Shown here one piece after another: positions 1 through 43,465 of a DNA stretch of 45,485 nucleotides (its first letter is position 1; each line of letters opens with the position of its first letter). This stretch comes from a virus (Duplodnaviria; Heunggongvirae; Uroviricota; Caudoviricetes). Location of the stretch: the IMG/VR virus record IMGVR_UViG_2869970738_000006, positions 1 through 45,485 of that record; one strand, written 5' to 3'. Position numbers and translations under genes: made by a program. Below the pieces are notes generated by a model. The model worked only from the letters and a program-made list of their open reading frames with translations, did not search any database and was not told the DNA's origin.

Positions 1-662
<662 letters not shown>

Positions 663-663
663 C

Positions 664-2412
664 TTTTGCGCTGATTGCCGCCTGCTTCGCGCTCTGCTGC
701 TGTTCAAACCGCGCCGCCTGCTGTGCCAGCTCATTCAGCCGCTTCTGGTGTTCAATCTTGTCTCCCAGCTCAGCCAGCTGGCGTTTGTACTCCAGCGTCT
801 CTTTCTCATGAGCCAGCAGGGATTTTTCCTGCTCAGATAACTGCCGTTTCGTGGCGGCCTCTTTCAGGACCACATACTGATTTTCCGCTTCCCATAAATC
901 CCGGCGCTGCTGGCTGATTTTCTCATTCACACCGCTGTGTTTTTCCAGCGTCCTGAGCTCGGTTTCAAGCGCCAGCATGGCTGCATGCGCCCGGTCTTCC
1001 TGGCGCTCACCGGCAGACACCTTCACACCGGACGGCTTTTTCAGCGTCTATTCATAATCCTTTTTTGCCGACGCCATCAGCGTGTTGCAATCCGCCTGCA
1101 GGATTTTTCCGTCTTTCAGGGCCTTATTCAGCTCTTTCTGACGGGCGGTATATTTATCCAGCGGCGTCTGCAGGCGCTCATACGCCTTCTGCGCCTCTCC
1201 GGTATACTTCAGCTGTGACGCCTCACGCTCAGCCCGGTCCCTTGCCGCCAGTTCACCGGCTTTTTCCATATCCGACTGCAGCGTGGCCGCTGCCAGACCC
1301 AGACGGGCATTTTCCCGGTCATCCCATGCCCCCTGAAGGTTCGCACGAAAAGAGGAGGTCTTTCCCCGGCGCTGGCTCCGGCTCTGGTACCACTGCCATT
1401 TTTTATCCGCCTCATCAAATGCCTTCTGCGCACTGGCGAGCATATCCGCTGAGGATTCAGGACGACCGATATCCAGAATGGCATCCCACATCGATTTGAA
1501 TGCCTTCCCTGTTTTATCCGCCCAGGTCTCCAGTGTTCCCATGTTTTCTTTCAGGCGACGGGTCTGCTCATCAAAGCCTTTCGTGGCGATATCGTTCGCC
1601 GCCTGCAATGCCCCGGCCTCGTCTCCGGAACGCTGCAGCTGTGCAACATACGCAATCTGCTCTGCCGTCACGTTACGGAACTGGCGCGCCATCGCCATCA
1701 GTCCCGACGTCGGGTCAGTGGTCAGCTTCCCGAAGGCTTCAGCGACTTTATCCACCTCCACACCGGATGCAGACGCAAAACGCGCGACACTCTGGTTGAT
1801 GGCATCAAACTGTTCACCACCACGCACACCGGCATTCACCAGGGCTGCCAGTGACTCTTTCGCCTGGTTAAACGTCAGCCCTGCTGCCTGCCCGGCTCTT
1901 GAGAGAGTCAGCATACGATCGGCAGTCAGTCCTGACTGATTACCGGAAAGAACCAGGGTTTTATTAAACGCTGAAAGCGTGGAATCTCCCTGGTACCAGG
2001 CGTACACCAGCGCACCTGTCGCCACCGCCAGCGAGGTGACCCCGACCATCGGCAGGGTGATCGCACCGGCAAGCCCCCTGAACATGGGGATCATCCCGCC
2101 GAAGGAGTCCTTCACCTGACCGCCCTGTTGCAGCAGGATCAGCCAGGGATTCTGACCACCTGCAAGCTGCGTGGCGATATCCGTAAACTGTGCGGGCAGG
2201 GTTCGCATGGCCGCTTTATACTGCCCGACGGAAATCCCGGCTTTTTGTGCAGCCAGCGCCTGGCGGCTCAGGCCCTGTTCAACAGCACTGGCGGTTTTTC
2301 TGGCGTCGGTATCCAGACCTGAAAAATGACGCCTTACCCGGCTCATCTGCTCATCGAAACGGACAGCATCCAGACTCAGGTCAATAACAAGATCACCAAC
2401 CGGCTGGGACAT
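664..2412 (-). pseudogene. Tail tape measure protein (lambda H-like), copy A: in-frame TAG at 1048-1050 and 3' end cut by the IS3-family element
   Basis: 454-aa N-terminal ORF aligns with lambda H; reading frame continues past the TAG (..KKDYE*TLKKP..) with conserved sequence until the IS junction. Confidence 0.8.
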
Positions 2413-2806
2413 ATCTCACACCTCCCGGAATCCCCGCTGAAGCCATCATTAATGCGGCATCATCCACCATGACATCCGCCACATCCGCAGACGATAAAAT
2501 ATCGCGCCCTCCGTCCCCACCGAACCGGACGCCTCCGGCAAGTCCTGCCGCTTTCTGCATCAGCATTTTGTCCTCATCCGGCCTCTCCACCTGCTCTTCC
2601 TCATGCCGGGGGACAAGCAGACTGAAATCAGAGGGATGCATATCCGGATCGCAAAAAAACAGGCTGAGTACAGCGTACGTCAGCCCGGAAAAATGCATAT
2701 CCAGCTGGGTATCCTGAAAATAATGCGTGCGGTAAAAACGGTGCCAGTCGGCATATTCGGTGGATGTCATCCCGGCAAGCATGGCGCGCCAGTCGAGTCT
2801 CCCCAT
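2393..2806 (-). CDS. Tail assembly chaperone T-frame segment, expressed as G-T fusion by -1 frameshift (copy A)
   Basis: T-like ORF in -1 frame relative to G; open from the slippery site at 2851-2857. Confidence 0.75.
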   Translation of the reverse strand: MGRLDWRAMLAGMTSTEYADWHRFYRTHYFQDTQLDMHFSGLTYAVLSLFFCDPDMHPSDFSLLVPRHEEEQVERPDEDKMLMQKAAGLAGGVRFGGDGGRDILSSADVADVMVDDAALMMASAGIPGGVRYVPAGW

Positions 2807-2832
2807 CTCACGCGCCAGTCTGAGGGCAAAGT

Positions 2833-3264
2833 TCAGCTCGCCGTCGAAGACTTTCCCGCAGAAAAATCATCATCAGTCAGCGTGTTATTTTTCGCCACTT
2901 CAGTAATATCAGTATCCGGACGAACAGCTTCGATCATCCCGGACAGGCACAACACCACGTCTTCCGCCCGGGCAATGGCATCGGCAGGCCAGGTGGTGAG
3001 CACTTCCTGCTCTATCTTCATCACGGCCTCATTCATTGACGGTGACTGCGTTTTCTGTGGATGGTTATGCCACAGGGACATCGCCACCAGAAACGCGCCG
3101 GTTCTGACGAGATCTTCCACGCTTACCTGCAGGTTGCCGCAGGATTCTGCCTGTTCTGCACGCCGTTTCAGGAGGGCAAGATGCTCGATACGCTGCAGCG
3201 CAGACAATTCGGAAAGCGTGACAGACACACCGTTATATTCAAATTGTTCTGTTTTCAGAAACAT
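2833..3264 (-). CDS. Tail assembly chaperone G (copy A)
   Basis: 143-aa ORF starting MFLKTEQFEYNGV, lambda G-like, ending ..SAGKSSTAS just after the slippery heptamer. Confidence 0.85.
   Translation of the reverse strand: MFLKTEQFEYNGVSVTLSELSALQRIEHLALLKRRAEQAESCGNLQVSVEDLVRTGAFLVAMSLWHNHPQKTQSPSMNEAVMKIEQEVLTTWPADAIARAEDVVLCLSGMIEAVRPDTDITEVAKNNTLTDDDFSAGKSSTAS
2851..2857 (-). other. Programmed -1 ribosomal frameshift heptamer G GGA AAG (G to GT)
   Basis: Minus-strand GGGAAAG in X XXY YYZ register within the last codons of G; T frame open downstream. Confidence 0.7.
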
Positions 3265-8735: not shown

Positions 8736-10316
8736 GTGGTGTTGTCTCCTCTTCCGGCCTGCGACTCTCCGCTATCTGCTGCTGATACGCCTGCGCTATC
8801 CACACCGGACGTGAGAGTCCGGCTTTTTCCCGCTCTGCAGATTCCCTGACCTGCTGGCGGAAAATGTCCTGATAATCCTCGCCCATCAGCGCCAGCTCTT
8901 TCTCATACGTGCTCAGTCCGGCCTCAATGCGCATCACTGATTCCTGAACCTCCTTGAGCCCGTCAATGGCCATTCTTCCGGCTCCAATCCACTCAGCCCG
9001 TGACCAGGCTGATCGCGCCTGATAAAAATCAAAACGTGCCCGTGGCGGACGAATAATCCCCGAAGAAGTGCCTCTTCCAGCCAGCAGGAAAACATCTGCG
9101 TGGCCAGCCGGGACGCAATAAATTTTCGCCGCCCCATAAAATAGCGCCACGACTCATTGGCGGATGCGCGGGCACTTGAATAACTGACCTTCGAGTAATC
9201 ACGGGACAACTGTTCGTAGGAAACGCCAAGACCGGCGGCGATATACCGCAGCAGCGCCTGTTCAAGCGCCGAAAATCCATTGTCTGAATCCTGCGCGGTC
9301 TGAAGTTTCAGATCATCACCGGGGAAAAGGTGCGGAATTTTGACACCGCCCAGCGTCACGCTATTCGTGTCATACCAGGTGGAGAACTTATCCAGAATAT
9401 TAATAAGCGGATTATCCTTCTGCCCCTGCGGCGCACCGGCGATATATTCAAAGGCCTTTTCGGTATCAAGGTCACTTTCAATCGTCGCTGCATACATCGC
9501 CTTCACTATGGCCGACTGAAGCTGTGTTGCCTGCAGGGAATCGAGCATCTTCAGCCGTTCCATTACGCTGTAAAACTGATTGGCCCCACGGGTCTGCCCG
9601 TCCTCCACCGGCTCGAAAATATGCAGCATGGCCGGACGCCCGGTGGGAAGTTCACGCGGGATCCGTTCCCATCGTCCACTCCCAGAGAACGGAAAATCAT
9701 CCTCACAGATATGGTACGCAACGGCACGACCATATCGATCGACCTCCACACCGGCCCGCAGAAAACGGTTCCCCATACCGTGTCCTGGCGTGTCCACCCG
9801 TTTCGGACTCACGGCTTTAAAACGCGTACGAAACAGTTGCGTGCTCTCCGTATCCCAGACCGGCTGCACAAAGATTTCGCCGTTAAACGCATGAACGCCC
9901 ACACCTTCACGAATAAATTCCGTAAACGTGCGTTTCTCTTCCACGTCGATCTCGCCAAACATCCCTTCGGCGTATTCCGACCAGGCCGCCTCCACCTCAT
10001 CGACAAAACTTTTTGCCGCAGTCTCCCGCATCCCCAGCCAGCGCCAGTTCGGACGGTAGCTGATCAGAAACATATGCCCGACAATATGATCCTTATGCAG
10101 GGCCACCGCATTGGCCGCTATCCCGTTATTGCGCACCAGATCATCTGCCCGGGCATTCCCCAGACGCAACGCAGGCAGCAGGGCTGCATCGGCACTCTGC
10201 GCCGGTGGCAACCACTCCGCCATTTGCCCACCAAATCCTGCGCCGCCCCCGTTGTAGCTGAGACTCTCACGAAGCGGAACGCCGTTCACATCAATCAGGA
10301 CAGGCGTTCGTTTCAT
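8725..10316 (-). pseudogene. Portal protein B (copy A), apparent -1 frameshift at a C4 run 9058-9061
   Basis: 460-aa ORF is lambda B-like but its C-terminus goes out of frame; the conserved C-terminus (..ARSAWS..RMAIDGLKEVQ) continues in the overlapping 141-aa ORF. Confidence 0.8.
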
Positions 10317-10519: not shown

Positions 10520-12430
10520 TCACTCCTCCGGACAGCTTCGCTGCCAGTTCTTTAAGGGTTGGCCGGGTCGTCTCTTCTTCCCGGGATTTTGCCAGTACAG
10601 CCAGATCAAGCTGCCAGCGTTGCACGGACACACGTAATGCCGCGTAGGCATACACCAGGCAGTCCAGCGCTTCGTTACGCCGCTTTTTGTTATCCCACAG
10701 CAGACGCATCTTTCCTTTTTCCCACTTCTCCACAAGCTCTTCCGCGACCAGTTGCTGCGCCTCTGTCTGCGAAAAAATCTCCGGATCATCAGGAAAACGG
10801 ATGGCATACGACGTGGCTTCATCCGCAGGCGTGGGATCGGCTTTCATACGGGCATAGAGAATTTCTTTTGCGGTGTCCGTCCCCACTTCACACAGATACA
10901 CGCCCCGCTGATTGCGGGTTTTCGGCATGGTGATCACCGGCTTGCCATAGACAGATGCGCCTTTTACCGGCAGCACCCGGAAAACACCGTGTTTTTTTGA
11001 CCTCTGATAGACAATTTCACCATCGATCCCCCGGTGTCCCAGCAGACACGGGAAATGGTCATTTCGGTTCCGTCTGCATGGCAGTATTTTTTGTTGATCG
11101 CCGCATCCACACGTAACAGCGTCTCTTCCTCATCGGGACGGCCCATAATGATGATTTTATCCACCAGAAAAGCTTCCTCTCCCGGTGCCCATCCCCAGAC
11201 ATACATCTCAAAACGGTTTCGCTGCGAGTCAATGCCCGCCGTCAGATAAACCACCCGGGCAGGTACCGCCGCCGTGTAATGCACGACCTTATCCATCAGT
11301 ACCTGGTGATCGAGTTTTTCGCCCACGGCTTCTTCCCAGGTCTCGCCCAGCGTGGTGTTCACAAAGGTTTTCAGGCCGTTGGGATCTTTCAGTGCATCCA
11401 GCCAGTCATAGACTATCTGTACCCAGGTGGTAAACGGACTGTACGCCGTCCAGATATGGAACGTGATGGAGCGCGGCGGCGGAATTTCATTACCCGCAGC
11501 GCTGAAAAACGTCAGACCGTCACGGGTCCACATGCCCGTGTTTTCACAGATCCACCGCCCGTTGCTCTGGTCCAGTTCAGACTGATGGATCACGCAGCCA
11601 TGATGTTCACAGAGGTAGAAAACACTTTCGGGACTGTCCTTCTCCCATTTAAGCCCAAAAGGCGTGGACTCATCGCCAAATTTCAGATACTGCTCCTCCC
11701 CACAGTGTGGGCAGGGCACATAAAAACGCATAAAATGCGCCGACTCGTTGGCCGCTTTTTCGATCTGGCAGGTGCCTTTGATTTTAGGCGTCGAGCCGCG
11801 AATGGATTTGGGCCATACAGAGCCCTCAATACGTTTATCCCCCAGCAGGGTTGGCGAACCCTCTTTTTCGACATCCGGTTCGAACGAGGAAAGTTCGTCA
11901 TAGCAGACCACGTCCACGGATTTTTCACGGTAGTTTTTAGCGGCAGCCCCGCCCAGGCACCAGAAGCCCACGCCCGATGAAAAACGTTTCAGCGTGAGGG
12001 TATTATCACGATGTTTACGACCCAGCCATGGGGAAAGGTCTTTCAGGCATGGCACATCCCGAATCGTCGCCTCCACGTGAGACTTCATAAAATCTTCAGC
12101 GGCAGAATCCGTGGGCTGAAAAAGCAGACTGTTTCGTGATTTATGCTCAATAAAATACCCGACCACCCCCAGCAACATCTTTGTATAGCCAACACGGGCA
12201 GATTTAATCAGGTTAACCGTGCGAACCTGGTCGTTACCCATACAGTTCATAATGGCGACCTGGAACGGCAGCGTTTTCCATTCTCCCTCACCATATGAAG
12301 ATTCTTTAGGCAGATAATAATTTTGATCAGCCCATTCAACTGGCGTCACCGGCAATGCCCTTATCAGGGGCTGTAATGCTGTTGTGACAGCACTCATCAT
12401 ATTATTCAGTTGTTGCTCTGATATATTCAT
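10503..12430 (-). pseudogene. Terminase large subunit (lambda A-like), frameshift at a C5 run 11028-11032
   Basis: 507-aa ORF matches the A N-terminus and ATPase; conserved C-terminal nuclease part (..KGASVYGKPV..) is in the neighbouring 157-aa ORF. Confidence 0.85.
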
Positions 12431-33763: not shown

Positions 33764-36371
33764 CGCCCGCTCCCCGATAACAGACCGCCATCACGCAACT
33801 GCAGCCGGAGCTCATCCTGCGCACCTTTACGGGCCATCTCATACACCGCTTTCATCAGCTGCGGCCCTGCCTGCCCGTTGGGGCCGTCGTTCTGAATCAC
33901 CACGTGATTGTTCTGATTAAAATTAATGCCTTCGGCCCGCCGCATCTGCGCCGGACTTCCGGCACCGCCGACATAACCACCTTCCGCATACCCGCGCATC
34001 AGACGATACAGGTTGCCGACACCAATCCGGCTGGTCGCCTCCTTCGTGAAGACAAACTCCCCGCGATGGACAATCCCCGCAGGCTCATATTTGCCGCCCG
34101 TCCCCGTAAATCCTCCGGTCGCGAAATGGAAGTTCGCCGCCGCAGCCTGAATGGCCGTCCCCGTGGAAGCGGATGCGCCACCACCGAAAGCACCACCAAT
34201 GGCGCTGCCGATACGCCCGACAATCCCCACCATCGCCTGCTTCAGAAAAATCTCTGTCAGCATGGAGAGCACGGAACGGGTGAAACCACGCCAGTTCTGT
34301 TCGCTGCCGGTCAGCATCGCCGCCATATTCTGTGCAATACCGTCAAAGGTCTGCGTGGCCACACTTTTTACCTGCGAAAAACTGTCCGTCGCACTTTCCG
34401 CCCACTCGCCCCAGCCGGACTTCATCCCGGCCATCCAGCTTCCACGAAGCTGCTCCTCCGCAGACCAGGTGTTCTTCAGTGCAGATGTGGCCTTCGCCAG
34501 CGCAGCCGGATTATCACCGTACACCTCACGAAGGCGCTGCTCTTCCGACTCCCGCTGCGCCTGACGGTCGGTGAGTCCGCGGGCTTTTGCGCTGATTGCC
34601 GCCTGCTTCGCGCTCTGCTGCTGTTCAAACCGCGCCGCCTGCTGTGCCAGCTCATTCAGCCGCTTCTGGTGTTCAATCTTGTCTCCCAGCTCAGCCAGCT
34701 GGCGTTTGTACTCCAGCGTCTCTTTCTCATGAGCCAGCAGGGATTTTTCCTGCCAGGATAACTGCCGTTTCGTGGCAGCCTCTTTCAGGACCGCATACTG
34801 ACTTTCCGCCTTCCATAAATCACGGCGCTGCCGGCTGATTTTCTCATTCGCACCGCTGTGTTTTTCCAGCGTCCTGAGCTCAGCTTCAAGGGCAAGCAGA
34901 GCCTCTCTTGCCTGCTCCTCTTCCCTCTCCCCGGCAGAGCGCGTTTTCGGTGATGTATGCTTTTTACCTGTCAGCTCTTCAGCCAGACGGCTGACGGCTT
35001 CCTGCTGCCCAAGACCTTTGCTGACGCCTGTTGCACGCGAGCGGTTGATGTACCCCATTTCCCCCTGGCGTATACGCGCATCCCGTTCCGCAATGGATTT
35101 TCTCAGCGCCAGTTCATCGCGTTTTGTTTTCTCAATAAATACGCGGTTCTCTTCTGCCAGTTCACCAAACAACGCACCAACGCCGGGCACATTCTTTGTC
35201 GTTTCCCAGGCTGACTGAATAAATTCAGCCAGCGCCAGATCCCCCTGCACAAGCAGCAGCTTCACCTGTTCAACGGTTCCGGCCACCACGTCAGTGATCA
35301 GACTGAGTGCCCCCAGTGTATGATCACCTATCCATGCCCATGCGTCAGAAGTCCAGGTTTTAACATCGTCCCAGATTTTTTCCACCGGCGTGGCCGCTTT
35401 ATCAAGTTGCTCCAGACGTGCATTCATGACATCCGCAAACAGGGACATCGCCTCCGTCACCGCAGCCTGTTTACCTTTCGTGCGCTCAAGCTCATCAATA
35501 TGGCGTAACTGGGAAACGCTCAGGAAGTTATACTGCTGATTCAGGGAGGCCAGCGCCTTCACCGGATCTGCTGCAATCCCTTCAAAGGCTTTTTCCACCT
35601 TCCCGGCATCGTCCCCCACCGTCTGCAGCCATCTCTGAGAGGTTTCCCCCATGATCCGTAGCTGCCCGGCGGTATATTTCCCGCTTTCTGCCAGACGGGC
35701 CAGATTTTCTGCCGCCTGTCTGATACCACCACCGGCTTCATCGCTGATCACCCCGGCCATTTTCCACAATTCTGCCGTTGTGGTGGCAGCCGCCCCTCCG
35801 GTCAGGATCAGTGAACGCAATAAGGCCCGGTCAGCCTGCTCTGCCTGCCAGGCGGCGACAGCAAGCGCGGCCAGTACGGCAACCCCGCCACCTGCCGCCA
35901 CACGGACCACCGACATAAATCGTCCCAGCTCACCGGCATTCCGGGCATTTTCAGCCAGTGCATTTGCCGTATCTGACAGCGACTCCTCTGATGATTCAGA
36001 GGCATCCCTGATCCCGAGAAGTTCCTCCTTCAGCAGGGTAAGCAGGCTGAGCGGTTCACCGAATGAATCGCTGATCTGCCCCCCTGCTGCAGCATGATAA
36101 GGAAGGGATTCTGACCACCGGCAAGCTGAGTGACAATATCCGTGAACTGTGCGGGCAGTGTGCGCATGGCAGCCTTATACTGTCCGACTGATATCCCGGC
36201 TTTTTGTGCAGCCAGCGCCTGTCGGCTCAGCCCCTGTTCAACAGTACTGGCGGTTTTTCTGGCATCCGCCTCCAGACTGGAAAAATGACGGCGTACCCGG
36301 GCCATCTGTTCATCAAACCGGGCCGCATCCAGACTCAAATCAATAACCAGATCACCCGCTGGCTGGGACAT
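33760..36371 (-). pseudogene. Tail tape measure protein (H-like), copy B: apparent 1-nt deletion in a C6 run at 36079-36084
   Basis: N-terminal ~95 aa in ORF 36030-36371; rest in 718-aa ORF; the adjacent frame reads ..LQQGGQISDSFGE.. continuously into the long ORF. Confidence 0.8.
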
Positions 36372-36765
36372 ATCTCACACCTCCGGAAATCCCCGCTGAA
36401 GCCATCATTAATGCAACATCATCCTCGCTGACATCCACCACATTCGCAGAAGGTGAAATATCGCGCCCTCCGTCCCCTCCGAACCGGACGCCTCCGGCAA
36501 CTCCTGTCGCTTTCTGCATCAGCATTTCTTCCTCGTCCGGCATCTCCGTCTGCTCTTCCTCACACGCTGGAGCAAGCAGACTGAAATCCGCCGGATGCAT
36601 ATCCGGATCGCCAAAAAACAGGCTGAGTACGGCGTACATCAGCCCGGAAAAATGAGCGTCCAGTTGGGTATCCTGAAAATAATGCGTGCAGTAAAAACGT
36701 CGCCAGTCGGCATATTCGGTGGATGTCATCCCGGCAAGCATGGCGCGCCAGTCGGGTCTCCCCAT
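36352..36765 (-). CDS. Tail assembly chaperone T-frame segment (copy B)
   Basis: 137-aa ORF homologous to copy A T; T frame closed by a stop at 36790-36792 upstream. Confidence 0.7.
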   Translation of the reverse strand: MGRPDWRAMLAGMTSTEYADWRRFYCTHYFQDTQLDAHFSGLMYAVLSLFFGDPDMHPADFSLLAPACEEEQTEMPDEEEMLMQKATGVAGGVRFGGDGGRDISPSANVVDVSEDDVALMMASAGISGGVRYVPASG

Positions 36766-37183
36766 CTCTCGCGCCAGTTTCAGGACAAGTTACCGGCTCA
36801 GTCGCTTCTGCTTTCCCGGTTTGTTCAGGATCGGCATCGTGCCGGTTATCCAGCATACCTGAAAGATAAAGCACCCGGTTCGTTGCCTGATTCAGTGCAT
36901 CAGCAGGCCATCCCAGCATCACTTCACGGCGGATCTGCTGCATCTCTGTCTCCGGAGAGGCCAGAGTGCCTTTGAGGGAATGGGTATGCCATAGCGACAT
37001 CGCCACAAGCAGGGATGCCGTTTCCAGATATCGCTGGTTAATGTGCACGACATCATGCTTCGTTGTCTCCTGTTGTTCTGCGTCTGAAACAAACTTTATA
37101 TAATCAAACCGCTGCAGCGCAGACAATTCGGAAAGCGTGACAGACACACCGTTATATTCAAATTGTTCTGTTTTCAGAAACAT
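36560..37183 (-). CDS. Tail assembly chaperone G (copy B) with aberrant 3' end: reads through ~75 extra codons, no in-register slippery site
   Basis: First ~130 aa G-like; middle and 3' part diverge from copy A; GGGAAAG at 36811-36817 is in GGG AAA register. Confidence 0.6.
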   Translation of the reverse strand: MFLKTEQFEYNGVSVTLSELSALQRFDYIKFVSDAEQQETTKHDVVHINQRYLETASLLVAMSLWHTHSLKGTLASPETEMQQIRREVMLGWPADALNQATNRVLYLSGMLDNRHDADPEQTGKAEATEPVTCPETGARDGETRLARHACRDDIHRICRLATFLLHALFSGYPTGRSFFRADVRRTQPVFWRSGYASGGFQSACSSV

Positions 37184-37196
37184 GTATTACCTCCGT

Positions 37197-37949
37197 TTAC
37201 CCTGCAGCGCCCGCTTCAGTAACGGTGACTTCAGCCACTGCGGCGAACTGACCATTTCCGCTCACCACAAGGATCTGCACCTTACCTGTCGCCACGCCGT
37301 TTACCGTAATTGTCATATCTTTCACACTAATGGTGGCTTTCGACGGATCGGCGGAAACCGCTCTGAACGTCTTGTCGGTTGCACTTTCCGGCTCAAAAGA
37401 AACCGTCAGGGTGGTTGTTTTCCCTTTTGCCACCGTACCGGATGTCGGCGTCACCTTAATCGCACTGACCGGCGTAATTTTGCTGCGTTCTTCCGCTACA
37501 GAAGGTTTACCCACGTTAGTGACTTTCACCGTGCGGGTGATCACTTCTTTCGCCGTCACGGCCTTACCGATACTGCTGACCCAGCCACGAAACACATCCA
37601 CCGTGCCATTCGGAAAACGGATTTTATAGGCCCGGACATCGCCGCTTTCAAACCAGCCTATAAGCCCTTTCTGGCCTTCCTCTCCCGGTTTCCAGGCCAG
37701 CGTAAAACTGGTATCACCTGCAGATTTCTGCCCCTGCCCGGTCGCGTTCCAGTCCGCGTCTTCATCATCCAGGTAGTTATCATCGTAGGATTCTGCCGTC
37801 ATCTCGCCCGGCGTCAGATCCTTCACCTTAGCCAGTCGCTGCCAGTCATCGTCTGACAACGGGTTTGCATAAGCATCACCCTTGCCGTTGTAAACCCACA
37901 GAGTGGTACCGGCACCTTTTACCGGCTCAAGGGGATTTGGTGTTGCCAT
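37197..37949 (-). CDS. Major tail protein V (copy B)
   Basis: Near-identical to copy A V. Confidence 0.9.
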
Positions 37950-37956
37950 ATCGTCC

Positions 37957-38352
37957 TCACATCTCGTATGTAATGGAATAAGTCAGATCTGCAGAACTCC
38001 ATAACGCCATATCGTCATCACGACGATACTCATAGCCCTGCGTAACCATCGTGGTAATCAGTCCTGCCAGTGCCGGGATCGCAGTCATCGCCGGGTAAAT
38101 CCGGCTTTCCATCCACTGATCAAGCTCTGAATCCGGTACCTGTGCCGGTAAAAACACCTCAATATGCAGCGTGGCCCGCCAGGTATCTGCATCCAGCTCT
38201 TCACCGGTATACTCTGCATCCGTCAGATAAACCGCGATCGCAGGAAAATCCTCTTCGTCAAAAACAACGGGGCGACCATCAAACAGCGTCGCCCCGTGTT
38301 CATGCTGCTCGAGTGCATCCAGCACTGCGGCACGAATGTCAGTGTGTTTCAT
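37957..38352 (-). CDS. Tail terminator protein U (copy B)
   Basis: Identical protein to copy A U. Confidence 0.9.
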
Positions 38353-38924
38353 CGTTTTATCGCAATCCTCAGTTGTTGTTTCAGCGCGTATGCCAGTTCT
38401 TTAGGCAGGCGTTCACGCCGGATACGGTCAACATTCTCATCAAATGCCTGTTTCAGTGGGGCCGCCATCGGGATTTTCACCACCTGAATGGGAAGGCGAT
38501 TACGCTTTTTCCTTCCCTTGTCGTCATTGCCCTCCTCATATCTGGCCTGGGGAAGACGTTGCATAACATGCCAGCGCCCATTATTTAATCGCTGGATAAA
38601 TGCCCGCTGATAACGATGCTGACCGGCTTTAAGTATGCTGTTCGGACGACGTCCCAGCATTCTGATCCCCAACTTAATCACAGGGAGATCACCGCGGTTA
38701 ACGATAATTCTGGCATTCGGATTTCTGACCGTCGCCCGTTTCAGTCTGGACCGTTCCTTTACCAGTTTCCGTCTCACCCTGGTTTCCCGGGCAACCTGTG
38801 ACGAAGACTGATTAATCGCCGTTGTGGCCACGCGGTTAATCGTCATTGCTGAAGCCGCCGGAATGGCGTTTTTACGAACCCGGCTCAGATTATCAATCGC
38901 CTGATCAAGCCCTTTTATCGCCAT
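38349..38924 (-). CDS. Tail completion protein Z (copy B), 14-aa insertion relative to copy A
   Basis: 191 aa versus 177 aa; extra segment LPQARYEEGNDDKGRKKRNR. Confidence 0.85.
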   Translation of the reverse strand: MAIKGLDQAIDNLSRVRKNAIPAASAMTINRVATTAINQSSSQVARETRVRRKLVKERSRLKRATVRNPNARIIVNRGDLPVIKLGIRMLGRRPNSILKAGQHRYQRAFIQRLNNGRWHVMQRLPQARYEEGNDDKGRKKRNRLPIQVVKIPMAAPLKQAFDENVDRIRRERLPKELAYALKQQLRIAIKR

Positions 38925-38939
38925 AATTTCACCCTGCGT

Positions 38940-39293
38940 TTATCGTCGCCGGTTAACAGCGGGTGGTTGCCCACGGTTGAGCCAGAGATAACAGCTTCCC
39001 CCGTCATCCGGAGAAATACGATCCACCCAGAACATCTCGCCGTTAATGGTCAGCGTGTCACCACGCCGCACGGCACGCACCGTATCCGTCCGCACAAATA
39101 ATGACGGGCTGCTTCCTTCAATACGGACCCCGCCACCGGCAAAACCCAGCGACTCCGGATCGTCAAAAACCCCCTGAACTTCGCTTCCACGCTGTGCTCC
39201 CGAGGTGAACTGCGCACAGAGCCCCATCACTTCAACAATCGTGCTGTCCACCCCGGCAAGGGCAGCATCAAAGGCATTCTGAAAATCACGCAT
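38940..39293 (-). CDS. Head-tail joining protein FII (copy B)
   Basis: Near-identical to copy A. Confidence 0.85.
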   Translation of the reverse strand: MRDFQNAFDAALAGVDSTIVEVMGLCAQFTSGAQRGSEVQGVFDDPESLGFAGGGVRIEGSSPSLFVRTDTVRAVRRGDTLTINGEMFWVDRISPDDGGSCYLWLNRGQPPAVNRRR

Positions 39294-39669
39294 GCTCAGC
39301 CGTTCCGTGCTGTATCATGGCTGTCGCCAGTGGTGATGGCACCATAACACGCATGCCCCGGTACGTCAGTTCAACGGGACGGCCTGTCTCCGGGCAATAC
39401 CCCATCACATGCAGGCATTTCCGCACACGGACCGCTTTAACATCATCCGTAGCATCCGTGTTGTTCAACTGCTCACCATCGTCTGTGTGATTTTGATCAG
39501 CCCCGCTCTCATCAGAGTGCATAATGCCCTCCGGGGAAACAGCAAGCTCCTCTTCCCACTCAGACACACGTTGAGCAATATCCGCAGCACTCCCCGACAT
39601 ATCCGCCTCGCGCCCCGGCAGGCCAGCCAGTTGACGAAGACGATTCAGATTTTCTTCTTTTGTTGCCAT
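39286..39669 (-). CDS. DNA packaging protein FI (copy B)
   Basis: Near-identical to copy A; start at MATKEENL. Confidence 0.75.
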   Translation of the reverse strand: MATKEENLNRLRQLAGLPGREADMSGSAADIAQRVSEWEEELAVSPEGIMHSDESGADQNHTDDGEQLNNTDATDDVKAVRVRKCLHVMGYCPETGRPVELTYRGMRVMVPSPLATAMIQHGTAEHA

Positions 39670-39720
39670 CTCAGCCTCCTGTGAAAAAAGACACGGGGGC
39701 ATTTCGCCCCCGCTCACGGA

Positions 39721-40749
39721 TTATTTCACCTGTACCACCACAAACTCATCCGGATCCGGCAGCACCATCAGCGGTGCGGACTGCGTCATGGTGAATTCAC
39801 GGGCCGGATCGCCCACAGTCAGCCAGTGTTTCGGATAACGGGAAGAGGCCACCACACCTTCGGACAACGCCTGCGCATCCTGAATGGCACCATAGCAACG
39901 AATGCCCTCTGCTGCCGTATTCCCCAGGACCAGTGTGCCCTCCGGCAGATAACGTTTTTCGGTACCGTCCTCTGCCACATAAGACGTTTTCGCCACCACA
40001 ATGGCCAGATCGCCGTAATACCCCTTGAAGGACACCACCGCCCCCAGGTCTTTCACTGCCGTTTCGAGTTGTGAATTTGAGCCGCGACGGGTATCCAGTT
40101 TTTCGCGGAACAGCTTAAAGCCATTCAGCAGACGCCAGACCGTACCGTCCATAATGGCGATATTCACAAGGCCGCTGGCCTGATCGCAGTAGAGGTCAAT
40201 ATCATGCGTCGGATCAAACGTATCACGGTCCTGCTCAGACCATTTTTTACCGTCAGCCTGCTCAATGTTATTTCCTTCAGAGCGCCCGAAATCCACCTCG
40301 ACAGTATCAAACTGATCCCCTTCCATGGTGTATTTGCCATACAGCACGGCATTCACCGCCTGCATTTCTTCCACCTGGACAATGGCGTGCTCTTCCTGTT
40401 TGAGGTTATCGGTAATGATACGCAGACGACGGTAGGCCGGGTCGTTCAGCTGAGCCGGATCTTCACCAGGAAGGCGCTCAACCGCCTGCTGGTAATTAAA
40501 TTCGTGTTTGGGCTTGACGTAGCCCGGACGTAACACGCGGGTTTCACCACCGCGATGGCGAAGCACTTTTCCTTCAACGATCGGGGAGACATAGGCCGCC
40601 ACCGGCGTTTTTCCGGTAATTTTGTCCAGCATCACCTCTTCGGTGTGGAAATTCACCGTACGGCGGAAAAACAGCTCCAGAAACAGCGCACGGAATTTCA
40701 CTTTTTGTTCGGTATAACCGAGTAACTGGCGGGTCGTAAACAATCCCAT
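39721..40749 (-). CDS. Major capsid protein E (copy B)
   Basis: 342 aa, a few substitutions versus copy A. Confidence 0.95.
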   Translation of the reverse strand: MGLFTTRQLLGYTEQKVKFRALFLELFFRRTVNFHTEEVMLDKITGKTPVAAYVSPIVEGKVLRHRGGETRVLRPGYVKPKHEFNYQQAVERLPGEDPAQLNDPAYRRLRIITDNLKQEEHAIVQVEEMQAVNAVLYGKYTMEGDQFDTVEVDFGRSEGNNIEQADGKKWSEQDRDTFDPTHDIDLYCDQASGLVNIAIMDGTVWRLLNGFKLFREKLDTRRGSNSQLETAVKDLGAVVSFKGYYGDLAIVVAKTSYVAEDGTEKRYLPEGTLVLGNTAAEGIRCYGAIQDAQALSEGVVASSRYPKHWLTVGDPAREFTMTQSAPLMVLPDPDEFVVVQVK

Positions 40750-40806
40750 AAATCAGTTCCTTTCATTAAGAAATCAGTCAGGCCAACGCGGTGGCCTGAT
40801 AACGTG

Positions 40807-41154
40807 TTACGGCAGCGCCGCGTGACTCAGGGCTGTGCCGGCAAAGGCATTTGCCTTTTTGTGTTCATCCCCACTGTCAGGCCAGCGGATTGCCTCCGTC
40901 GCAAAGGTCCCCGACTTGTAATAGGTCAGCACCGTCTCTGTGCCTTCAAGCGGCAGTACCAGTATGCCAACCGCACTACCGGCTTTCTGTCCATCCCAGA
41001 CCACCAGTTTCCCGGTGGCTTCATCCAGCATCAGGGGCGTCAGAGCCGGTGTTGCCGAGGAAATCCCGCTGCTGCCTGTGGCGGTGTGAGCCGGATCATT
41101 ACCGGCAAAAATACGTACTTCCGCACGCTGTTCAGTGATGGTTTTCGTCACCAT
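40807..41154 (-). CDS. Head decoration protein D (copy B)
   Basis: 115 aa, near-identical to copy A. Confidence 0.9.
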   Translation of the reverse strand: MVTKTITEQRAEVRIFAGNDPAHTATGSSGISSATPALTPLMLDEATGKLVVWDGQKAGSAVGILVLPLEGTETVLTYYKSGTFATEAIRWPDSGDEHKKANAFAGTALSHAALP

Positions 41155-41190
41155 TTTGTTAAAACCTCATATTGATGGTCAGCACTGACT

Positions 41191-42696
41191 TCATGGCATG
41201 GCCATGAGCATTTTCACGTCCGCATCACCGTCTGCTGACGTCTGTGACACGCCACCCCGCACCGCTGCCGGTGAATGATTCGCCATGAAATGTTCAAACA
41301 GGGCGGTTGTGGATGCAGAGACCGGTTCGGCCTTACCTGATCCCGCAGCCAGCACAGCCCGGGCGTTCTCCACGGTCATTCCCGGGCAGGCCGCCAGTTT
41401 TTCAGCCTGCGCTTCTGCCCCTTTTGCCTCATCCAGGGCCATGATCTGATCACGAAGTGAGGGCCCGGCATCCGCCAGTGGTGCAGCCGCCAGGATCGGG
41501 CGGGCTTTTTCCACCGTCATCTCCGGCATCGCCGCCAGCGTTGCCGCCAGTTGTTCACGACCGTTCGCTTCTTCACACGCCATAATGCGATCGGCTTCAC
41601 TCTGCGCGGATGCCACCGGCTGCTGCGGTGCCGCCGCGGCCAGAATCGCCCGGGCCTGTTCAACGCTCATGCCCTGTTGCCCTGCCAGCATCGTGGCAAG
41701 CTGTTCACGTCCTTTCGCTTCCTGGCATGTCAGGATCCCCATCACTCGCTGGTTCTCCTGCACGGCGGCTTCCGTTGCAGTTAATTGCGGCATAGTGCCT
41801 CCTCTGACATTACTGTTCAGCGCCGTGGCCATCACACTGATGGCATCCGACGCATTGATTAATTCATCCGCCAGCCCGGCCTCAATGCCGGACTGACCTT
41901 CAAAAACAGCGGCCTCTGTTCCCGTGACTGCATCAACAGACAGACCGGTAAACATCGCCACTTTTTCGGCAAACATCCGGCGCGCCGCATCAATCCGCTG
42001 CTGCATGTCCTGGCGAACCTCTGCCGGCAACGCTTCAAACTGATTGCCATCCACCTTGTGCGCCCCTGAGTAAATCAGCGTGATATCCACACCGGCCTGC
42101 GCCAGATGACCGGCATAGCTGACATGGCTCATCATCACGCCAATGGAACCGATACGGGATGTCTGGGTAACCAGCCGTCGGGAGCAGGCCGACGCCAGCA
42201 GCATGGCCGCAGAACAGGCCGTGTCATTACACAGTGCCCAGACCGGCTTCTGCTGCCGGAGGCGGTAAATCATGTCAGCGCAGTCAAACACGCCGGCTGC
42301 CTGCCCGCCCGGACTGTCAATGTCCAGCAGTATGCCCCGCACCTGGCTATCTGCCATTGCCTGCTGAAGACAGGTGACAATGCCGTCATAGCCAGTCATT
42401 CCGGAAAATGGCCGCATCCCCCCCAGCCGGTGCACCAGCGTGCCGGTCACCGGCAGTACCGCAATACCGTTCACCACCCGGTAAACACGGGCCGGTCGTT
42501 TACCTCCGGCCATGTACTCGTCCGTTTCAGCCAGCATCCCGGGAGCATCAAGCTGTACCTGCTGTTGCGGTACCGAAAGACTTGCTGCCCCCATCTCGCG
42601 CCCCAGCGCGCAAAAGAAAACCCGCGCATAGGCGGGCTCCAGAAGCAGCGGTTCATTGAATGCTGCTGCAATAATGTGTGAAAGATTACGTCTCAC
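41191..42696 (-). CDS. Head maturation protease/scaffold C/Nu3-like (copy B)
   Basis: 501 aa, near-identical to copy A. Confidence 0.9.
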   Translation of the reverse strand: MRRNLSHIIAAAFNEPLLLEPAYARVFFCALGREMGAASLSVPQQQVQLDAPGMLAETDEYMAGGKRPARVYRVVNGIAVLPVTGTLVHRLGGMRPFSGMTGYDGIVTCLQQAMADSQVRGILLDIDSPGGQAAGVFDCADMIYRLRQQKPVWALCNDTACSAAMLLASACSRRLVTQTSRIGSIGVMMSHVSYAGHLAQAGVDITLIYSGAHKVDGNQFEALPAEVRQDMQQRIDAARRMFAEKVAMFTGLSVDAVTGTEAAVFEGQSGIEAGLADELINASDAISVMATALNSNVRGGTMPQLTATEAAVQENQRVMGILTCQEAKGREQLATMLAGQQGMSVEQARAILAAAAPQQPVASAQSEADRIMACEEANGREQLAATLAAMPEMTVEKARPILAAAPLADAGPSLRDQIMALDEAKGAEAQAEKLAACPGMTVENARAVLAAGSGKAEPVSASTTALFEHFMANHSPAAVRGGVSQTSADGDADVKMLMAMP

Positions 42697-43465
42697 GTGG
42701 TGTTGTCTCCTCTTCCGGCCTGCGACTCTCCGCTATCTGCTGCTGATACGCCTGCGCTATCCACACCGGACGTGAGAGTCCGGCTTTTTCCCGCTCTGCA
42801 GATTCCCTGACCTGTTGGCAGAAAATGTCCTGATAATCCTCGCCCATCAGCGCCAGCTCTTTCTCATACGTGCTCAGTCCGGCCTCAATGCGCATCACTG
42901 ATTCCTGAACCTCCTTGAGCCCGTCAATGGCCATTCTTCCGGCTCCAATCCACTCAGCCCGTGACCAGGCTGATCGCGCCTGATAAAAATCAAACCGTGC
43001 CCGTGGCGGACGAATAATCCCCGAAGAAGTGCCTCTTCCAGCCAGCAGGAAAACATCTGCGTGGCCAGCCGGGACGCAATAAATTTTCGCCGCCCCATAA
43101 AATAGCGCCACGACTCATTGGCGGATGCGCGGGCACTTGAGTAACTGACCTTCGAGTAATCACGGGACAACTGTTCGTAGGAAACGCCAAGACCGGCGGC
43201 GATATACCGCAGCAGCGCCTGTTCAAGCGCCGAAAATCCATTGTCTGAATCCTGCGCGGTCTGAAGTTTCAGATCATCACCGGGGAAAAGGTGCGGAATT
43301 TTGACACCGCCCAGCATCACGCTATTCGTGTCATACCAGGTGGAGAACTTATCCAGAATATTAATAAGCGGATTATCCTTCTGCCCCTGCGGCGCACCGG
43401 CGATATATTCAAAGGCCTTTTCGGTATCAAGGTCACTTTCAATCGTCGCTGCATACATCGCCTTT
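42686..43465 (-). pseudogene. Portal protein B (copy B): 5' ~270 codons missing (homology to copy A ends about 43465) and same C4-run frameshift at 43019-43022
   Basis: ORFs 42895-43458 and 42686-43111 match the copy A portal C-terminal half; upstream sequence unrelated. Confidence 0.8.

Follow-up and report, generated by a model that had tools for sequence, protein, structure and literature searches.

The tail-chaperone cassette (genes G and T) of one of two lambda-like prophage copies in the window, the whole 45,485-nucleotide stretch of DNA analysed here, is very probably pseudogenised by a 31-bp deletion within a prophage remnant on a Shigella boydii-type chromosome. We refer to the two prophages as copy A and copy B. 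The deletion lies in copy B, and both copies have their tail genes on the minus strand.

The reference system for this cassette is the lambda G/G-T chaperone, which depends on a -1 frameshift (Levin, Hendrix & Casjens 1993; Xu, Hendrix & Duda 2004, 2013, 2014). Lambda tails do not assemble without both gpG and gpGT, in a ratio of about 30:1; the tape measure protein is bound through the G part, and the T part brings in the major tail protein (PMC5009743; PMC3296357). By analogy with lambda genetics, we infer that copy B has lost this function.

Reading frames of the two G-T cassettes

The window resembles lambda in its gene order, V-G-T-H, and in its protein families, PF06894 for G and PF06223 for T. 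The features of the copy A cassette are as follows.

2833 to 3264, minus strand: copy A G gene, 143-aa allele in a canonical cassette (ORF list and register check)
2851 to 2857, minus strand: slippery site of copy A, the heptamer G GGA AAG, read in X XXY YYZ register
2393 to 2857, minus strand: T frame of copy A, at -1 to G, with 152 open codons counted from the heptamer

This cassette is canonical, as the first-pass annotation had described it. The heptamer at 2857-2851 is in register. Five sense codons separate its AAG from the G stop, TGA 2835-2833, and T occupies the -1 frame. Copy A thus shares with lambda its heptamer, the stop that soon follows and the position of T (PMC3296357 Table 1).

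The corresponding features of copy B are these.

37197 to 37949, minus strand: homologue of lambda V, major tail protein gene, directly upstream of G (ORF list)
36560 to 37183, minus strand: aberrant G ORF of 207 aa, PF06894 Phage_TAC_2 (ORF list)
36811 to 36817, minus strand: GGGAAAG, read GGG AAA in the G frame (register 0), fortuitous
36790 to 36792, minus strand: TAA closing the T frame upstream, in a +1 frame that is unused in intact alleles
36352 to 36789, minus strand: T reading frame (tail assembly protein T domain), uninterrupted and +1 relative to G

Recomputing the frames of copy B returned the arrangement that had first drawn attention to it. G starts at ATG 37183-37181, and its only GGGAAAG begins 366 nt further on (37183-36817), out of the canonical X XXY YYZ register and read as GGG AAA G... 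The G frame extends 83 codons past the end of GGGAAAG and stays open for about 75 codons into T, as far as TGA 36562-36560. Residues 1-132 of the 207-aa ORF are genuine tail assembly chaperone G, and the other 75 codons run out of frame across T. Relative to G, the conserved T sequence LKLAREMGRPDWRAMLAGMTSTEY... is offset by +1, in the frame that TAA 36792-36790 closes upstream, and the conventional ATG-started T ORF covers 36352-36765 (137 aa). Its product differs from WP_000533440.1 at one residue. In an identical locus (L013), PF06223 Phage_tail_T falls on the T gene and PF16461/PF02368 on the V gene, which relatives carry under the annotation phage tail protein or V.

Copy B keeps the layout of the cassette, with two overlapping ORFs between V and H (H from 36371). 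Because of a single deletion, it lacks an in-register heptamer in the last third of G, a nearby stop and an open T frame at -1; an in-register heptamer is present in copy A and in all intact relatives. Unlike lambda, copy B thus has neither heptamer nor G stop and carries T at +1, which makes it a broken member of the family and not a variant mechanism. Its GGGAAAG is no more than chance would supply, since the window holds six such motifs against 6.66 expected from shuffles.

A comparison of the two copies revealed 96.8% identity from V to the portal gene and 86.9% across T and the beginning of H. In the central and 3' portion of G the alleles are unrelated, of a 143-aa class in copy A and a 140-aa class in copy B, with different slippery heptamers. 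Because this unrelated segment (window 2830-3190 vs 36789-37109) sits between more alike flanks, the former identity applying upstream and the latter downstream, mosaic boundaries fall inside the chaperone gene.

A 31-nt deletion in the copy B cassette

Aligning the copy B G-T DNA with its homologues, a check that the first-pass annotation had proposed, revealed one 31-nt gap that explains the frames. The intact relatives read GGTAAC, then the 31-nt segment, then TTGTCC, where the window reads GGTAAC-TTGTCC.

36788 to 36789, minus strand: deletion junction, 31 nt missing (ATCAAAAAAGCATTCGAAGGCGAGCTGAACT), placed by alignment with intact relatives

We compared the 861-nt G-T region with 5,426 complete E. 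coli genomes by megablast and found 510 records with at least 99% identity to it. The best E. coli matches always come in two pieces that span 892 nt against the 861-nt query, i.e. 31 nt more, and Stx1a-converting phages (99.3-99.4% identity) likewise match in two pieces spanning 892 nt. The closest relatives of the region, 99.3-99.5% identical to it, all carry the 31 nt. Known carriers of the 140-aa G allele include VT1-Sakai (G/T), CP-1639, the Stx1a phage Stx1_9793 and O157:H7 and O145 prophages. Nucleotide identity between copy B and these phages is 99.3-99.5% at best and 93-94% for VT1-Sakai and CP-1639, and the flanking genes are the same. Unlike copy B, they retain the 31 nt: their A AAA AAG is in register, a stop comes five codons on and T is at -1.

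What copy B has lost is, in the intact alleles, the segment with the in-register A AAA AAG, the stop of G and the beginning of the -1 T frame. The heptamer is at nt 399 of G and the stop, TGA, follows five codons later, which gives a G of 140 aa. After a -1 shift the reading proceeds as ...TSKK-AFEGELNFVLKLAREMGRPDW... or ...SKKAFEGELNFVLKLAREMGRPDW... and remains open for 152 codons. The unrelated 143-aa allele of copy A can be aligned across this segment, where it has a GGGAAAG...TGA of its own; the segment is thus ancestral, and copy B carries a deletion.

Each peculiarity of the copy B frames can be traced to this loss. T moved from -1 to +1 because 31 = 30 + 1 nt were removed, and G reads on across T because the deletion took its stop. 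The TAA now stands in the T frame because the deletion shifted GG TAA C out of a formerly unused frame; the same GGTAAC context is found in intact alleles.

The alignment also bears on the choice of slippery site. GGGAAAG occurs in register 0 (nt 367) in the intact alleles L002 and L016 as well, reads GGTAAAG in an O157:H7 prophage (L001) and is absent from VT1-Sakai and CP-1639. A AAA AAG, a dnaX-type heptamer and the one most prone to -1 shifting in E. coli (PMC5009743), lies 32 nt downstream of this position in the intact alleles. Judging from these alleles, the GGGAAAG of copy B is a bystander and not the frameshift site of this allele class. The premise that 36811-36817 is a displaced frameshift site thus gives way, as the intact alleles shift at A AAA AAG instead. 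A lambda-like heptamer can therefore mislead, since the slippery site of this G allele class is A AAA AAG rather than GGGAAAG.

We propose the following course of events. The G of copy B belongs to the 140-aa class, whose G-T arises by -1 ribosomal frameshifting at an A AAA AAG that precedes the end of G by five codons. Loss of 31 bp, perhaps as a single event or as a 30-bp loss between two AAC triplets together with one T, took away the slippery heptamer together with the stop of G and about nine codons at the beginning of the extended T frame. With T displaced from -1 to +1, G now reads 75 nonsense codons, and the TAA shuts the T frame upstream. The predicted product is a G that ends in 75 nonsense residues; no G-T is expected, and copy B alone would be unable to support tail assembly. 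Against decay, the copy B T frame is uninterrupted, with one amino-acid change from the E. coli allele and no visible decay beyond the deletion; this fits a recent deletion, but it is no proof that function was lost.

Other origins of the frames were considered and excluded. A pair of 1-nt insertions, placed upstream of GGGAAAG and between it and T, does not agree with the 99.5%-identical alleles, which show a single 31-nt gap and no upstream indel. An insertion of the 31 nt in the E. coli alleles is excluded by the 143-aa allele of copy A, which spans the segment with its own heptamer and stop. A mosaic recombination joint is excluded by the flanks, both of which match the same intact alleles at about 99.5%.

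T at +1 with an uninterrupted frame is also what would be seen if a programmed non-canonical shift, +1 or -2, joined G to T in copy B, and such tail-chaperone shifts are known in other phages (PMC5009743). A GGG G quadruplet at 36763-36760, eight to nine codons past the T-frame TAA, would let a P-site tRNA-Gly re-pair at +1. We nevertheless regard a programmed shift as very unlikely, since a recent 31-nt deletion from a canonical -1 cassette accounts fully for the arrangement and copy B, a remnant truncated by IS elements, shows no evident selection for tail assembly. At GGGAAAG, a +1 slip would run into the TAA seven codons later. The quadruplet itself is Met-Gly coding sequence of T that is present in every allele, and it is the only +1-compatible site near the T start after the TAA. 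The next 0-frame codon after it, GAG, is in common use, and no 0-frame stop adjoins the site. A scan of the G frame for +1 and -2 re-pairing sites found none that pairs a shift-prone codon with a next 0-frame stop. All the relatives found beyond the deletion lineage show the -1 arrangement, and no shift-prone motif with a slow or stop codon in the A site was found to be conserved with the frames of copy B. Xu and colleagues reportedly described +1 and -2 shifts in 2004 for tail chaperones of other phages.

The first-pass annotation had left a choice between a copy B that cannot make G-T and one that uses a non-canonical shift. With the slippery site and the G stop both deleted, the former is the part that stands, and the latter falls away, as a canonical -1 ancestor explains the frames.

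Agreement and disagreement among assemblies

We found the junction to be identical in 10/10 loci fetched (L005-L014), which comprise nine NCBI assemblies, including CP001063, and one Logan contig seen in 19 samples. Over a longer distance, window 30560-43183 is 100% identical to CP026795.1:2242632-2255255. CP001063 is the genome of Shigella boydii CDC 3083-94 and was deposited by 2008; its copy of the 207-aa ORF was entered as ACD07415.1 'minor tail protein [Shigella boydii CDC 3083-94]' (UniRef100_B2TVZ9) and is on 109 contigs. An exact-protein look-up located the ORF in 142 blocks of the collection. Automated annotation had thus deposited a read-through ORF as a 'minor tail protein', which is a second reason for caution.

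Outside these loci the junction was not encountered. A contiguous match to a 72-nt junction query was found in 0/5,426 complete E. coli genomes, 554 of which contain both flanks, with best matches that span 103 nt for the 72-nt query. Scans of genome_contigs (species representatives) and viral_contigs likewise did not return the exact junction. Because the identical junction recurs across independent assemblies and is found in none of the E. coli genomes, the deletion is, on the sequences compared, real and inherited, and within the sampling it is restricted to a Shigella lineage.

The window's other frameshifts are of another kind. One of them splits the copy B tape measure gene.

33760 to 36371, minus strand: tape measure gene of copy B, homologous to lambda H, broken into ORFs of 113 aa and 718 aa, one base short at 36079-36084

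One-base shortfalls in runs of C or G occur here (36079-36084, 6 vs 7), in the portal genes (43019-43022 in copy B and 9058-9061 in copy A, each 4 vs 5) and in the large terminase gene of copy A (11028-11032, 5 vs 6). The tape measure run is 7 long, with an unbroken gene of 870 aa, in 8/10 sister assemblies, and the copy B portal run is 5 long in 6/10; S. boydii CDC 3083-94 is among the assemblies with the longer form of both runs. Because the copy B run lengths vary among sister assemblies, the window's homopolymer frameshifts are probably consensus errors in some assemblies, the window's source included. The portal and terminase runs of copy A were compared with one E. coli relative only and are less certain as errors.

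That the source assembly has such shortfalls, breaking the tape measure, portal and terminase genes and varying between sister assemblies, might suggest that the G-T lesion is itself a sequencing or assembly artefact and that the true genome is canonical, with an indel error in the window. The lesion is, however, 31 nt of complex sequence, unlike a homopolymer miscall, and the same junction is present in the ten independent assemblies, with CP001063 and the 19-sample Logan contig among them, and the ORF on more than a hundred contigs. The possibility had been raised that resequencing would restore a canonical in-register site followed by a G stop; the ten independent assemblies instead keep the identical deleted junction. 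An artefact is accordingly a vanishingly small prospect, refuted for practical purposes by the agreement across the assemblies compared. The window thus mixes a genuine inherited deletion with probable homopolymer errors, and only the comparison of sister assemblies separates them.

Insertion sequences and the remaining tail genes

The window is dense in insertion sequences, with two IS3-family elements, two IS110-family elements, one IS66 element and one IS1 fragment.

1 to 654, plus strand: insertion sequence
12617 to 13792, plus strand: insertion sequence
14085 to 15677, minus strand: insertion sequence
21242 to 22438, plus strand: insertion sequence
23236 to 23613, plus strand: insertion sequence
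44667 to 45485, minus strand: insertion sequence, IS3-family transposase gene

An IS3-family element cuts the copy A tape measure gene at about 655, and the terminase end of copy A adjoins IS110-family and IS66 elements. Copy B breaks off inside the portal gene at about 43464, roughly 1.2 kb before the IS3-family transposase gene, and no terminase or early genes were found on the portal-cut side. Between the two copies lie the housekeeping genes aspS, yebC, ruvC, nudB and yecD and further IS elements. Insertion sequences truncate both prophage copies, and both copies are remnants. With IS3, IS110, IS66 and IS1 elements flanking and truncating them, the two copies resemble the defective, IS-ridden prophage remnants of Shigella genomes, and there is nothing distinctive about the pattern seen here. 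Also in the window, a yecD-like hydrolase ORF (22440-22811) lacks about 72 N-terminal residues and lies beside an IS110-family element.

Copy B has the marks of a pseudogene: near-identical intact homologues, a discrete indel, a reproducible lesion and other inactivating lesions. Its tail module could still work if the chaperone were supplied in trans, by copy A or another prophage, or if T were made alone from ATG 36765. Copy A keeps its canonical G GGA AAG cassette with a 152-codon open T frame, and the M, L, K, I and J genes of copy B are apparently intact, as is H in most sister assemblies. Such rescue seems highly improbable nonetheless, as the copy A tape measure gene is cut by the IS3-family element, IS110 and IS66 elements separate copy A from any late promoter, and ATG 36765 is preceded only by a poorly spaced GAGAG. 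Levin and colleagues reportedly found in 1993 that no free gpT is made in lambda. It is equally improbable that spontaneous +1 slippage at GGG G (36763-36760) yields a trace of G-T-like fusion that would, with the copy A cassette, give rise to tail-like particles from two IS-truncated remnants.

A cassette pseudogenised by the 31-bp deletion, the reading that we prefer, has little biological weight, as it adds one more inactivating lesion to a decaying Shigella prophage. The intact cassette, the decay of Shigella prophages and the 207-aa ORF were all already known.

Alleles outside the window provided two further observations on this chaperone class. In VT1-Sakai (L015) and CP-1639 (L019) the -1 T frame is 117 codons long vs 152 elsewhere, which makes the T domain shorter or truncated. 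Three E. coli G alleles of 148 aa (P0002, P0003 and P0015) are 140-aa-class copies that end ...TSKSIRRRAELCPETGA. Read from the protein sequence, these endings suggest one A fewer in the A AAA AAG run, and the slippery site may be a hotspot for indels or sequencing errors.
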